From: a virus
Taxonomy: Duplodnaviria; Heunggongvirae; Uroviricota; Caudoviricetes
DNA: 33,995 nucleotides
Direction: 5' to 3' (one strand)
Virus record (IMG/VR): IMGVR_UViG_2778261513_000009
Coordinates: 1 to 33,995 of that record
Both the position numbers and the translations under genes were made by a program. The notes under the pieces were generated by a model. That model did no database searches and was not told the DNA's origin. It saw only the letters and a list, made by a program, of their open reading frames with translations. Shown here one piece after another: positions 29,320 through 33,413 of the stretch; positions within the stretch are counted from its first letter, which is position 1; each line of letters begins with the position of its first letter.

Positions 29320-29584
29320 CTGCAGCAAACGCAATCTGACATTGCTGACCAATGCGCTCGACCTGCTCGCCAATGTCCGCAAAACTAGCCGCCTCACCGG
29401 TCAGAATGCCATGTAATATCAGACCAGATACGAGTCTGGAAACTGTTGGATAATAGCCAATTACACCGAGCCACTCTTTACCGGCGCTCTTTCCTGATTT
29501 TGCGGTTTTCTTTTCCTGCAAAATAAATTGAAACTGGTCACTAGTGACGACGAAACGGTCGCCCACCTCAATATAAATTGACAT
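29309..29584 (-). CDS. Hypothetical early-operon protein (orf82/83-like position)
   Basis: 91-aa ORF immediately upstream of A, overlapping its start by 11 nt. Confidence 0.55.
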   Translation of the reverse strand: MSIYIEVGDRFVVTSDQFQFILQEKKTAKSGKSAGKEWLGVIGYYPTVSRLVSGLILHGILTGEAASFADIGEQVERIGQQCQIAFAADGR

Positions 29585-29883
29585 TATTTACCACCTTTCC
29601 GATTTAATTTTTTTAGCTCACACGCACAATATGTAGATTGTTCAGCCATGAATTGTATTAATTCATCCACAGTGGTTATTTTCTTGCGATAAATAGCACG
29701 TTTGACAATTAGGTCGACAACATCAGAAAACAGATTTAACTCATTCGAATAAATAGCGATAACTGACCCAACCATCAAGCCAGATTCTTTATCACTTTTG
29801 AGGTCAGACAGAGATAAATCACCATTTTTGAGAACGGCAACTTTTAACCAGCCATTGAGAATCACAGATTTCAGCACAGACAT
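29584..29883 (-). CDS. Hypothetical early-operon protein (99 aa, AT-rich)
   Basis: ORF tightly packed in the early operon; about 38% GC. Confidence 0.5.
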   Translation of the reverse strand: MSVLKSVILNGWLKVAVLKNGDLSLSDLKSDKESGLMVGSVIAIYSNELNLFSDVVDLIVKRAIYRKKITTVDELIQFMAEQSTYCACELKKLNRKGGK

Positions 29884-30140
29884 TAAACAGCCTCCCCACG
29901 GGCGAGACCTGCGTTATGAAGTACCGTTGATTCCTGGCTGAGTAACTCGACAATCTCAACACGCCCCAACTCCTGCGTAACGATATGTTGAATCAGTTTA
30001 TCCAGATGAAATGAGAATATAGTCGCTGCGTCGGCCTGCGCTTCTGCTCTGGCCTGCTGAAGCAATAAAGAAAAATTGCTGCTTTGCTTTTCCGTTCCTG
30101 TAAGCATGACTTTCTCCAGACAAAAAGAAGTCCCGCACAA
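29883..30140 (-). CDS. Hypothetical early-operon protein
   Basis: 85-aa ORF between B and the downstream small ORFs; start uncertain. Confidence 0.45.
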
Positions 30141-30170
30141 TCAAGTGCGTTTAAAATTTAGATTATTTAA

Positions 30171-30671
30171 TTAATGCAAATATTGCTCAGGCTTGACCGA
30201 TGTTAATATCGTCGGCGCGTACTCAAACAGGCTAAACAACTCACGTAAAGCACGAAATAAATTTTCACGCCAATAACATGATTCTTCATTAATACGCCAG
30301 TAAGGCTGATTAAATTCAACCTCACTTAACCCTGCATGTAAAAACAATGACCGCCGTTGGCTAACCGTTAGAAAACTAATATATGCGGACTCACTTGAGC
30401 CAACCTGACGACGTTTTGAAAATGCAGCACGTAGCTCGTCGATAGCGCACACCAGACGCTCCCGGTCTACATCGTTCATTTCTTCAAGACGCATCGTCGC
30501 ATGACGCTGTTTTAATTGAGCATGAAAACAGACCGTCAGGCGGTCGCGTTCCATCATTTGATTATAGAAATCACAGCTATCCTGCCAGCGGGGCGCTGCA
30601 AGATATTTACCAATCAGACTACGTAATCCTTCTGGCTGCTTGTCCACAATGGCAAGGGTCATAACCGTCAT
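30171..30671 (-). CDS. B: Replication protein B (helicase-loader-like)
   Basis: 166-aa ORF, same length as P2 gpB, with an N-terminus (…TLAIVDKQPEGLRSLIGKYLAAPRWQDSCDFYNQM…) that I recall as resembling P2 B. Confidence 0.7.
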   Translation of the reverse strand: MTVMTLAIVDKQPEGLRSLIGKYLAAPRWQDSCDFYNQMMERDRLTVCFHAQLKQRHATMRLEEMNDVDRERLVCAIDELRAAFSKRRQVGSSESAYISFLTVSQRRSLFLHAGLSEVEFNQPYWRINEESCYWRENLFRALRELFSLFEYAPTILTSVKPEQYLH

Positions 30672-30838
30672 AACGATACCCCTATGGATTTTATGAAGCG
30701 TTTAGTCATGGCAAAAAATCCCGGCTTACGGGTGCGGATGATGATGCCTTTACGTCCCTTACCGTGAGTAATCTTGAACGTCATCGGCTGGGGACTTTCC
30801 TTACGAAGTAGCTGCGCAATACAACGTGGTTCTTGCAT
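30668..30838 (-). CDS. Small basic hypothetical protein (56 aa)
   Basis: ATG 30838 preceded by a GGAGG ribosome-binding site; translation MQEPRCIAQLLRKESPQPMTFKITHGKGRKGIIIRTRKPGFFAMTKRFIKSIGVSL. Confidence 0.5.
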   Translation of the reverse strand: MQEPRCIAQLLRKESPQPMTFKITHGKGRKGIIIRTRKPGFFAMTKRFIKSIGVSL

Positions 30839-30937
30839 AAATCCTCCATTAAGTAGCCGGGTTTTGCCCATGCCCGGCACATGGTCTTGTGGTAGGATTG
30901 AATCGCCAAAAACAACTCCACCACTAAGAGGTAAAAA

Positions 30938-31129
30938 GTGAACAATCAAAAACTTAATGAATTAATTACCACTCTTGAACAAGCCGTAGCATTAATTGAG
31001 TCTCTACCAACCCCAATGGGTGACGTGGAAAAATCGAATCAAGTCGATGTATTGACAATTAAGTTAAGAGAATTAGCTCACTCAAAAAAACCAAATCATC
31101 TTCAAGGGTTTATTGATATAAACGACTAA
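30938..31129 (+). CDS. Small 63-aa predicted helical protein, convergent with the 139-aa gene (AT-rich cargo)
   Basis: GTG start with AAGAGG 6 nt upstream; AT-rich; stop overlaps the stop of the convergent 139-aa gene. Confidence 0.45.
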   Translation: MNNQKLNELITTLEQAVALIESLPTPMGDVEKSNQVDVLTIKLRELAHSKKPNHLQGFIDIND

Positions 31130-31545
31130 GCGTCTAATTCATGTGGTGCGGCTTTTTTGGGACGATGCGACCGCACCATCACATTAAAAATGTCATCCCA
31201 ATCATCTTTGCTCATTAGCGTAATACCCAGCTCCCGAGCCTTTTCTCTTACACAGCGCGCCAGATATAAACGATTATCAATACTTATCCCTATAGCCCTT
31301 TCTTTCATGCGGCCGTAGTTATCAGAAAGAAGCTGTATCAAGTCAAGGCGTAGTATTTCAACTGAGCCATCAGTGCTGCGAAAAACTAAATCATCACCAT
31401 CAATAAACACTGGTTCACTTTTGAGCTCTTCGCTACTCACCCACTTACGCAGACTTCGTGGAACAACAAGACTATTTGAAGGTGTCATTTCGTCTAATTC
31501 ACCACTGAATAAAGCCACTTTTATGGTTTTCAACTGATGTTCCAT
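31126..31545 (-). CDS. 139-aa hypothetical protein directly downstream of cox (AT-rich cargo)
   Basis: ATG 31545 with AAGGGGG ribosome-binding site; about 38% GC against a roughly 55% backbone; N-terminal segment LVVPRSLRKWV is faintly AbrB/SpoVT-like. Confidence 0.6.
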   Translation of the reverse strand: MEHQLKTIKVALFSGELDEMTPSNSLVVPRSLRKWVSSEELKSEPVFIDGDDLVFRSTDGSVEILRLDLIQLLSDNYGRMKERAIGISIDNRLYLARCVREKARELGITLMSKDDWDDIFNVMVRSHRPKKAAPHELDA

Positions 31546-31609
31546 TTCTACCCCCTTATGCCGACTGGTCAGCTAGCCATTCACAAACTGAGCGATGTAT
31601 TTCAACCGG

Positions 31610-31879
31610 TTAAGACCCTAAGCCCAACCACATTAGCCACCCTTCCCTAATTTCTTTCGGGCGACTTTCATATGCGAGTTTCATGCCGTTGTTCCATGCT
31701 GGGAGGTAAACCCAGTATTCACCTACTGTTCCGCTGGTTGACTGCGGATCAGTCATTTTAATAATGGGTAGCTTCCCTTTATCAATCATTCCCCGAACAG
31801 CCATGGGAGTCTTACCAATAAGCCTTGCGAACTCTTGATAAGGGACTGCATCAGTTACACTTACAAGCTGTTTGCTCAT
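31610..31879 (-). CDS. cox: Cox (excisionase / repressor of Pc)
   Basis: 89-aa translation MSKQLVSVTDAVPYQEFARLIGKTPMAVRGMIDKGKLPIIKMTDPQSTSGTVGEYWVYLPAWNNGMKLAYESRPKEIREGWLMWLGLG is near-identical to P2 Cox as I recall it. Confidence 0.85.
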   Translation of the reverse strand: MSKQLVSVTDAVPYQEFARLIGKTPMAVRGMIDKGKLPIIKMTDPQSTSGTVGEYWVYLPAWNNGMKLAYESRPKEIREGWLMWLGLGS

Positions 31880-31904
31880 CTGTTACGATTCTCCTTTAGT
31901 GCTA

Positions 31905-31941
31905 TTAATTGCTCTTAATGGGGTTTAATTGCTCTTAATGG
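31905..31941. promoter_or_regulatory. Two 17-bp direct repeats ttaattgctcttaatgg spaced 20 bp apart (putative operator at the early promoter)
   Basis: Perfect copies at 31905-31921 and 31925-31941 in the cox-C divergent region; P2 C repressor is known to bind direct repeats flanking the early promoter. Confidence 0.55.
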
Positions 31942-31971
31942 TGATTCACCCATCGGAAAGATAAATCTACG

Positions 31972-32000
31972 ATAGGTGATAATATTCAACTATAGGTGAT
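31972..32000. promoter_or_regulatory. Two 9-bp direct repeats ataggtgat spaced 20 bp apart, just upstream of C (putative Cox or C binding site at Pc)
   Basis: Copies at 31972-31980 and 31992-32000, ending 3 nt before the C start codon. Confidence 0.45.
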
Positions 32001-32003
32001 TTT

Positions 32004-32303
32004 ATGTCAATAGAGATTCATGAAAAAATCAAGCTCATCAGAGAGTCTGAAAGACTAAATAGAAGAGAATTCAGTGAGTTAACAGGGATCGTTTACGGTT
32101 CTTTTTGTAGCTATGAGGCTGGCGATAAAAAACCAGGTGTGGAGCAAATAATGAAAATCCTTCAACACCCGCGCTTCACCAAGTACACGATGTGGTTTAT
32201 GACTGATCAAATAACACCTGAAGCTGGGCAGATTGCACCGGCTCTCGCGCACTTTGGGCAGCCGACAACAACGTCACCCCACTCAGACCAGAAAACTGGC
32301 TAA
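32004..32303 (+). CDS. C: Immunity repressor C
   Basis: 99 aa, same length as P2 C; C-terminal ...FTKYTMWFMTDQITPEAGQIAPALAHFGQPTTTSPHSDQKTG strongly resembles P2 C. Confidence 0.85.
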   Translation: MSIEIHEKIKLIRESERLNRREFSELTGIVYGSFCSYEAGDKKPGVEQIMKILQHPRFTKYTMWFMTDQITPEAGQIAPALAHFGQPTTTSPHSDQKTG

Positions 32304-32399
32304 CAATTTACGGCGCTTTTTTGTGCAGTAAATGCACTGTGAGTTTTTGTTATTTAAATCAGGAAATTGAAGTACGCAGTAACATCATCGGGAGGCTTT

Positions 32400-33413
32400 A
32401 TGTCTGTTAAAAAGCTCGATGATGGTCGATATGAAGTGGACGTCAGACCTGCAGGGCGCAACGGAAAGCGCATCCGCAGGAAGTTCGATAAGAAAAGTGA
32501 AGCTATCGCTTTTGAAAAATATACTCAGTACAACCATCACAACAAAGATTGGTTGGCTAAACCGACAGATAAGCGGCATCTGTCAGAATTAACAAAAGTC
32601 TGGTGGGATTTGAAGGGCAAGCATGAGACTCATGGTCGAGATTATCTAGGAAAAATTGAGTTATTCACAAGGATTACAAGTGACCCATGCGCATTTCAGA
32701 TTACTAAATCATTGATTAGCCAGTACGGCACGGTGCGCCGTTCTCAGGGCATCAAACCATCGAGCATCAACCGCGATTTGACTTGCCTTAGCGGAATGTT
32801 TACCTCGTTGATAGATGCAGAGCTATTTTTCGGTGAACACCCTTTCAGAGGTGTTAAGCGACTGAAAGAGGACAAACCTGAAACTGGCTACCTCACGCAA
32901 GAGGAGATCGCTGATCTACTGTCGAAAGTCGATGGGGATAATAAGAAAATAGCGATTCTTTGTCTTAGCACCGGCGCGAGATGGAGTGAGGCTGCAAAAT
33001 TGAAAGCTGAAAACATCATCCAAAATCGCGTCACGTTCGTTAAGACAAAAACCAACAAACCGCGAACCGTTCCGATATCCGAGGAGCTGGCAACAATGAT
33101 CACATCAGGAAAGCGTGGCTATCTGTTCACGAACGCTAACTATCCTGCATTCAGACGATTAATGAAAGAGTTGAAACCGGACTTGCCACCGGGTCAGGCG
33201 ACGCACGCATTGCGTCACAGCTTTGCCACTCACTTTATGATTAACGGAGGCAGCATTATCACGCTTCAACGGATACTCGGGCACTCACGAATTGAGCAGA
33301 CAATGACCTATGCACATTTCGCCCCTGAGTACCTGCAGGACGCGGTAACGCTTAATCCTTTACGCGGTGGCACTGATGCTCTGAGTGTCCACACAATGTC
33401 CACGCTTGAATGA
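32400..33413 (+). CDS. int: Tyrosine integrase (P2 Int family)
   Basis: MSVKKLDDGRYEVDVRPAGRNGKRIRRKFDKKSEAIAFEKY... and C-terminal ...HALRHSFATHFMINGGSIITLQRILGHSRIEQTMTYAHFAPEYL match P2 Int as I recall it, including the catalytic R/H/Y region; GGGAGG ribosome-binding site. Confidence 0.9.
   Translation: MSVKKLDDGRYEVDVRPAGRNGKRIRRKFDKKSEAIAFEKYTQYNHHNKDWLAKPTDKRHLSELTKVWWDLKGKHETHGRDYLGKIELFTRITSDPCAFQITKSLISQYGTVRRSQGIKPSSINRDLTCLSGMFTSLIDAELFFGEHPFRGVKRLKEDKPETGYLTQEEIADLLSKVDGDNKKIAILCLSTGARWSEAAKLKAENIIQNRVTFVKTKTNKPRTVPISEELATMITSGKRGYLFTNANYPAFRRLMKELKPDLPPGQATHALRHSFATHFMINGGSIITLQRILGHSRIEQTMTYAHFAPEYLQDAVTLNPLRGGTDALSVHTMSTLE

Follow-up and report, generated by a model that had tools for sequence, protein, structure and literature searches.

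Genes for lysogenic conversion are carried by P2-like prophages at documented hotspots (PMC9122126; PMC13586616), and a minor hotspot was described somewhere between the integrase gene and gpA (PMC13586616). These prophages are a much-studied source of anti-phage systems, and work on them has focused on the gpA-gpQ (old/tin) and tail (Z/fun) hotspots. The old and tin genes of P2 are located on the strand opposite to the early operon, converge with A-orf91 and have their own mapped transcript starts. Here, we describe a further, small and sparsely occupied slot in the early operon, between cox and orf78, in a viral DNA stretch of 33,995 nucleotides (nt) (IMG/VR record IMGVR_UViG_2778261513_000009, Caudoviricetes; the whole stretch is hereafter called the window). 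The window is a P2-like prophage, the right end of which is 100% identical to E. coli UTAK-6, beside yegR/yegS, and its slot contains two convergent genes encoding proteins of 139 and 63 amino acids (aa). We propose, with a probability of roughly 0.4, that these two proteins act as antagonists on either side of the lysis-lysogeny switch, the 63-aa protein being a neutraliser made in the lysogen and the 139-aa protein an early effector. Phage cargo hotspots as such are already known; a slot at cox-orf78, a bipartite design of convergent genes and a leader common to unrelated alleles are not described in the literature that we searched, in which nothing specific was found on these accessions or on a cox-orf78 hotspot.

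Both open reading frames (ORFs) are real genes under purifying selection. Their coordinates and ATG and GTG starts (Table 1) agree with those of a first-pass annotation made from the sequence alone, which had also recognized the strong ribosome-binding sites (AAGGGGG, 5 nt before ATG 31545, and AAGAGG, 6 nt before the GTG) and the convergent arrangement with overlapping stops, TAA at 31127-31129 on the plus strand and TAG at 31126-31128 on the minus strand (an overlap of 4 nt, 31126-31129). The Prokaryotic Genome Annotation Pipeline (PGAP) annotates both genes in four E. coli genomes, and both ORFs are retained in at least 11 independent loci; in every locus recovered, cox, the 139-aa gene, the convergent 62-63-aa gene, orf78 and B follow each other in the same order. 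The pair recurs, down to 40-54% identity and with the convergent overlapping layout kept, in prophages of E. coli, Citrobacter, Salmonella and Yersinia ruckeri (loci recovered from Salmonella, L003; Y. ruckeri, L004-6; Citrobacter braakii, L007-9; and metagenomes, L011 and L034-37), the 3' overlap being 4 nt across the loci but 17 nt in L011. We identified 16 homologous clusters of the 139-aa protein (54-99% identity) and 12 of the 63-aa protein (40-98% identity), for which the ratios of nonsynonymous to synonymous substitution rates (dN/dS, Nei-Gojobori) are 0.16-0.25 and 0.09-0.50, respectively, with synonymous sites near saturation. Along the 63-aa stretch the annotated frame is the sole open frame in every locus, the small gene starts with ATG in most of the other loci, and a purine-rich Shine-Dalgarno-like sequence (AAGAGG/AAAGAG/AAGG) is present at the matching position in most of 20 aligned loci. 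The selection and the uniquely open frame bear out the earlier view of the antisense 63-aa ORF as a real protein-coding gene.

The pair is a rare accessory insert with a conserved architecture. In P2, only 10 bp separate cox from orf78, and homology with P2 stops at the ATG of orf78 (window 30838/30839); in the relative L041, the junction is empty and homology breaks at 30838 and within the 3' end of cox. We set the limits of the insertion at 30839-31609 because L041 combines a B protein 98% identical to that of the window with an empty slot. Among the 80 IMG/VR contigs whose B proteins are closest to that of the window, the gap between cox and orf78 measures 0-21 nt in 74, and cargo is present in six. 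Such variable presence among otherwise similar phages (the slot being empty in P2, L041 and 74/80 contigs) is that of prophage cargo. The insert is present in 4 of 5426 complete E. coli genomes, a scan of GTDB species representatives returned no genome with it, and neither protein had a match among 50,697 phage records, homologues of the 139-aa protein by tblastn being zero. The cassette is carried by phages with different immunity types, cox types and attachment sites, and so moves by recombination. At 30938-31545, the GC content is 39.8%, close to the approximately 38% of the first-pass annotation; it is 33.9% in the 63-aa gene and 42.4% in the 139-aa gene, compared with 45-47% in cox, orf78, B and int and 51.5% in the window as a whole.

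A leader of approximately 70 nt accompanies the cargo. It is nearly identical in 20 loci of P2-type and 186-type phages, whatever the cargo, and it precedes a plus-strand small gene in at least five other unrelated cassettes of P2/186-like prophages (Table 1). The recurrence of this leader ahead of unrelated convergent pairs points to the pair in the window being one allele of a multi-allelic accessory slot of P2/186-like prophages. Every occupied slot that we examined combines a forward gene with a convergent small gene, and the leader was retrieved from five of six occupied slots by a strict pattern, and as a variant from the sixth, but from none of the 74 empty ones; among E. coli genomes, only the four bearing the insert contain it. 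Scans of the proteins of the other alleles against Pfam, PHROGs, PADLOC and NCBIfam gave no match. The small proteins of the cassette of the window (A), cassette B and the cassette of phage SEN5 were aligned by hhalign in a collinear but non-significant manner (probability 2-6%), so that homology is not shown, and the comparison of the 139-aa profile with SEN5_33 was also non-significant. We noticed in the same three small proteins (for SEN5, L027 2607-2789) a collinear N-terminal helix that ends in a (E)(S/P)(L/I)P-like turn, with ESLPT in both A and SEN5.

Within the leader, the extended -10-like element TGTGGTAGGAT lies approximately 39 nt before the 63-aa start codon and would start an mRNA approximately 32 nt before that codon. 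It is invariant in loci with unrelated cargo, and the variants TACTAT (L013) and TGATAGGAT (L093) retain T1, A2, A5 and T6. The whole element looks like a portable promoter or leader. Its two palindromes each show one compensatory change, GCCGA/TCGGC in L004 and CCACG/CGTGG in L022; since the covariation term of RNAalifold on this junction element was negligible, we do not claim a structured RNA there, and Rfam contained no family matching positions 30000-32400. A pseudoknot formed by the two overlapping palindromes was considered and rejected, the loop lengths being unsuitable. In Yersinia phage vB_YenM_42.18 (L028 2500-2545), only the left, palindromic half of the leader is present, upstream of gpB and with no plus-strand gene. 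This left half may therefore be concerned with expression of the early genes downstream rather than with that of the small gene.

A second element was identified downstream of the 63-aa gene, a stem-loop located where the 139-aa gene ends in poorly conserved codons. In an alignment of 11 loci, 92% of the cells are paired, compared with 18-54% in slid-register controls, and none of 500 shuffles reached its score. Three pairs are altered on both sides (GC to UA, UA to CG and GC to AU), and the single-sided changes of the stem are nearly all G-U wobbles, which preserve pairing on the plus strand only, the sense of the small gene. In L011, the large protein of which is 39% identical, a hairpin of different sequence is present at the same place, and in other alleles of the slot a GC stem-loop follows directly after the plus-strand gene, with a canonical terminator in L017. 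Because the hairpin of the window has no U-tract and a folding energy no better than that of shuffled sequences (z = -0.38), we rejected its reading as a canonical intrinsic terminator and refer to it as a candidate 3'-end or stabiliser element of the 63-aa mRNA. Beyond the hairpin, the plus strand is C-rich and G-poor (GC skew -0.23 to -0.25). The terminator of L017 (AAAACGGCAT...ATGCCGTTTTTT, hot-region approximately 604-640) is apparently bidirectional and lies in the 3' part of the forward 141-aa ORF, which raises the question of how early transcription gets to the replication genes in that phage.

The profile and structure searches suggested for the two proteins in the first-pass annotation were carried out, and neither a family nor a fold was obtained for either of them. 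There was no match in Pfam, PHROGs, PADLOC and NCBIfam (no helix-turn-helix or CII family in Pfam or PHROGs for the cargo), profiles of PDB sequences returned noise only, and an exhaustive hidden Markov model search of 1.84 billion representatives returned five matches, all from the family apart from one spurious ferredoxin-repeat protein. No fold can be assigned from the structure models, which are too weak or generic for that purpose. The 139-aa protein is acidic (isoelectric point, pI, 5.6) and hydrophilic, and its AlphaFold2 model is poor (predicted local distance difference test, pLDDT, 48). The 63-aa protein is likewise acidic and hydrophilic (pI 5.2, grand average of hydropathy, GRAVY, -0.35), with no membrane helix; its model (mean pLDDT 68) contains amphipathic helices at residues 3-22 and 30-47 and a tail with pLDDT below 50. 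This generic helical hairpin retrieved only generic matches and none at E < 0.1 from BFVD. The C-terminal tail of the 63-aa protein ends in (S/G)F(I/N)DIN (GFIDIN in the window), a sequence that persists in homologues with no more than 40-50% identity. Such a motif, conserved in a tail predicted to be disordered, would be typical of a partner-binding peptide.

We hypothesized that the slot is organized as two transcription units. The 139-aa gene would have no promoter of its own and would be read together with cox from the early promoter Pe, and so would be made only in infection or induction; its position after cox in the early operon, already claimed in the first-pass annotation, is consistent with the spacer of 64 nt between the two genes, in which no terminator-like site was found. 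The second unit, on the opposite strand, would be self-contained, being composed of the leader with its -10-like box, the ribosome-binding site, the 63-aa ORF and the stem-loop. Since this unit is oriented like C and int, as old and tin are relative to the early operon, it would most likely be expressed in the lysogen, when Pe is off, and its transcript may end at the hairpin with the aid of Rho acting on the C-rich antisense stretch. Transcription from Pe must traverse the small unit in antisense before reaching orf78-B-A, and an active Pe would silence the 63-aa gene by transcriptional interference and by antisense pairing of the complementary 3' ends of the two mRNAs; with Pe crossing the small unit and the 3' ends being complementary, expression of the two proteins would be mutually exclusive and belong to opposite states of the life cycle. 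The small helix-loop-helix protein would, through its disordered tail, neutralise the 139-aa early effector or its target, so that lysogens would be shielded from leaky or superinfecting expression, the block being lifted in lytic growth. Promoter activity, expression timing, interference, antagonism between the proteins and any phenotype are what we infer from these comparisons, and the evidence fits the reverse roles of the two proteins just as well.

Several observations weigh against antagonism between the two proteins. Neither of them resembles a known effector, immunity protein, toxin or regulator in profile, structure or defence libraries, and the -10-like box has no -35 partner and was not called by a consensus promoter scan; the hairpin, as said, lacks a U-tract and an energy better than that of shuffles. 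In Kluyvera intermedia L010 (5001-5884; P0013) and in P0010, the homologue of the 139-aa protein is extended at its C-terminus by approximately 77 aa, to 216-219 aa in total (216 aa in L010), and lies opposite to an unrelated 67-aa convergent gene; this arrangement shows recombination inside the tail and hairpin region. The small-gene type of L010 (D-type; the L010 and L017 versions are 34% identical) is paired in L017 with a different forward gene, and L011 is a mosaic with a large protein 39% identical and a small protein 70% identical. The identities of large and small proteins are correlated over the loci (r = 0.75 with L011 left aside), but shared ancestry and linkage alone can explain this value. 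To judge from these loci, obligate pairing is weakened. We therefore keep as a possible, though doubtful, explanation that the two genes are independent morons sharing a slot, the 63-aa gene being a lysogenic-conversion gene under its own promoter and the 139-aa gene an unrelated early accessory one of the kind of fil and dhr in 186 (for taking over the host or helping replication), with the overlap reflecting compaction; it is the partner exchange between L010 and L017 and the mosaic L011 that keep it at this level. In favour of this explanation, partners are reshuffled, the D-type small gene facing unrelated forward genes, and the leader and the small gene form a conserved anchor next to which the forward genes vary. 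The region after cII in 186-type phages is a site of non-essential early genes, and the 186-type cargo is located there. Nevertheless, cassette A keeps both genes in all of its at least 11 loci, down to the lowest identities and with their overlap, and the forward-plus-convergent design of every occupied slot examined is unexpected for independent insertions.

An explanation that we consider quite unlikely is that the opposite-strand unit is mainly regulatory, its promoter firing against Pe and its RNA base-pairing at the 3' end with the cox-139 mRNA, in the manner of lambda OOP and cII, so as to damp leaky expression of early and replication genes and stabilise lysogeny, with the ORF being secondary. 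It is in agreement with the leader being the most conserved part of all alleles, with the conservation of the convergent 3' overlap and the hairpin, and with the placement of the unit between Pe and the replication genes orf78-B-A; yet the 63-aa ORF is selected as a protein, with nearly saturated synonymous sites and a conserved ribosome-binding site, 92% of close relatives do without the element and Rfam gave no match. A classical toxin-antitoxin system, of type II or of type I with 3'-overlapping convergent genes, is very improbable. Two small adjacent genes of low GC content in a mobile element, one of them encoding a small acidic protein with a predicted disordered tail, would suit such a system, and a convergent 3' overlap resembles that of some type I toxin-antitoxin loci; however, the genes are neither co-directional nor co-transcribed, Pfam, PADLOC and NCBIfam yielded no toxin or antitoxin family, and the small gene encodes a hydrophilic protein, not a small RNA or a membrane peptide. 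The probability that the 63-aa ORF arose by chance in antisense, or that the 139-aa protein belongs to the conserved early core, is close to negligible. The former could be suspected, at first sight, only from the GTG start and the short length, and is contradicted by the ATG start in other loci, the uniquely open frame, a dN/dS well below 1 and the PGAP annotation; the latter is contradicted by the absence of the 139-aa gene from P2, from the 50,697 phage records and from nearly all relatives, including 74 of the 80. The first-pass annotation had itself named these two outcomes as those that would undo its proposal of an accessory module with a toxin/antitoxin-like, superinfection-exclusion or regulator/anti-regulator function; the accessory nature of the module stands, whereas none of these functions is established, there being no match in profile, structure or defence libraries.

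Should the two proteins be antagonists toggled by the lysis-lysogeny switch, they would constitute a compact and testable model of how lysogens are armed without harm to lytic growth, and several protein families with no known relatives would join the catalogue of defence and counter-defence. In the case of independent morons, two real genes are still cleanly annotated and a candidate portable promoter is added. A broader proposal, which we regard as unlikely, is that the cox-orf78 (or cII-orf78) slot of P2/186-like prophages holds allelic convergent cassettes with a common promoter leader, each encoding a lysogen small protein and a cognate early-lytic protein for phage-versus-phage exclusion and self-immunity, the diversity of which would be driven by competition between temperate phages; if true, it would represent a defence or counter-defence architecture not yet described.

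Table 1. Features of the cox-orf78 slot, its neighbours in the window and other cassettes found in the same slot.
Feature	Position	Strand	Remarks
139-aa gene	31126-31545	-	WP_047090186.1 in E. coli UTAK-6; ATG start; PGAP coding sequence; second gene of the early operon, after cox
63-aa gene	30938-31129	+	WP_047090185.1; GTG start; PGAP; antisense to the early operon, oriented like C and int
Shine-Dalgarno sequence of the 63-aa gene	30926-30931	+	AAGAGG, read from the sequence
Whole insertion	30839-31609	.	771 bp, from homology breakpoints with P2 and a close empty-slot relative
Conserved junction/leader element	30856-30924	.	Travels with the cargo (alignment A5, 20 loci, with members in L002-L036, L090 and L093); order: palindromes, -10-like box, CGCCAAAAACAA...CCAC
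Leader palindrome	30856-61 / 30873-78		GCCGGG / CCCGGC; overlaps the next
Leader palindrome	30868-72 / 30880-84		CCATG / CATGG
Extended -10-like element	30888-30898	+	TGTGGTAGGAT; TG 30890-30891, TAGGAT 30893-30898; putative promoter
Stem-loop	31143-31179	+	GTGGTGCGG, 19-nt loop, CCGCACCAT; begins 14 nt after the 63-aa stop
int	32367-33413	+	
C	32004-32303	+	
cox	31610-31879	-	Flanking backbone gene, first gene of the early operon; PF10743, E = 5e-41
orf78 homologue (56 aa)	30668-30838	-	Flanking backbone gene, before B; phrog_273, E = 9e-28; PGAP start; P2 orf78
B	30171-30671	-	phrog_235 / Phage_RepB
Cassette B, 199-203 aa with 62-64 aa	L018, L022, L023, L024, L026		In 186-type phages, directly after cII
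Cassette 141 aa with ~67 aa	L017		
Cassette 62 aa with 58 aa	Yersinia phage vB_YpM_115 and L090 (1780-2360)		
Cassette 63 aa with ~91 aa	L093 (1940-2520)		
Cassette 158 aa with 60 aa	Salmonella phage SEN5 (L027 2607-3287)		
Other occupied slot	L013 2586-2951		

The first-pass annotation had placed the pair between cox and B, which is correct on the side of cox; on the other side, the neighbour is the orf78 homologue that precedes B. A longer ORF of 93 aa (TTG 30949; 30668-30949), overlapping the start of the 63-aa gene, was rejected as an over-extension of the 56-aa orf78, because its PHROG match spans residues 38-92 only and the PGAP start is at 30838. We also noticed, between cox and C (31905-31944), two tandem 20-nt direct repeats, TTAATTGCTCTTAATGGGGT and TTAATTGCTCTTAATGGTGA, in a position like that of the repressor operator repeats of the P2 Pe/Pc switch. 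Inside cox, in antisense (31738-31765, plus strand), there is a sigma-70-like site with 10 of 12 consensus positions (TTGACT, 16-nt spacer, AATAAT), which overlaps a terminator-like hairpin (31739-31755); the count of such sites in the region is at chance level. Further along the early operon, a second low-GC stretch (29500-29900, 34-39% GC) covers a DUF5405-family gene (29584-29883) and may be another variable segment.

Compared with described two-gene modules, the pair resembles type I toxin-antitoxin loci (par of pAD1, txpA/RatA) in being a compact module of a mobile element with a convergent 3' overlap, and type II systems in the small acidic partner with a predicted disordered tail; it differs from them in that neither a hydrophobic toxin peptide nor a non-coding antitoxin RNA is present, the two genes do not share an operon and the proteins contain no known toxin or antitoxin domain. 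Classical type I/II membership fails on every testable feature. As regards type II, the two genes do not form one operon but face each other from opposite strands, overlapping by 4 nt at their 3' ends, and neither protein matched a Pfam, PADLOC, NCBIfam or PDB-sequence entry; as regards type I, the GRAVY and pI values of the 63-aa protein and its lack of a membrane segment are not those of a hydrophobic toxin, and both strands encode proteins under purifying selection where a non-coding antitoxin would be expected. The two coding regions have 4 nt in common, and the hairpin that is a candidate 3' end for the small-gene mRNA is situated within the large gene.

Closer likenesses are found among phage switch regions. 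A short opposite-strand transcript (predicted here) over the 3' end of an early gene, facing the lytic promoter, is shared with lambda OOP/cII, P2 Pe/Pc and 186 pR/pL, but in the window, unlike in pairs of the OOP/cII type, this transcript encodes a selected protein. The 139-aa gene occupies a place equivalent to that of fil and dhr in phage 186, in the region following apl-cII, after the switch genes and before the replication genes, and differs from them in having no similarity to any sequenced phage protein. Phage 186 is not known to have a convergent partner gene at that place. An explanation of the cargo by 186 CII or pE was rejected, because in 186-type loci a separate cII gene is present upstream of the slot.

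The cargo is most similar in kind to old/tin, between A and Q, and Z/fun of P2, being likewise non-essential, variable and of low GC content, and the 63-aa unit shares the orientation logic of old and tin. In contrast with these, it is much smaller, shows no homology to known defence proteins (PADLOC) and is located between cox and orf78 in the early operon; and it is bipartite, a lytic-strand gene and a lysogenic-strand gene overlapping at their 3' ends, behind a leader of approximately 70 nt that is common to unrelated alleles.

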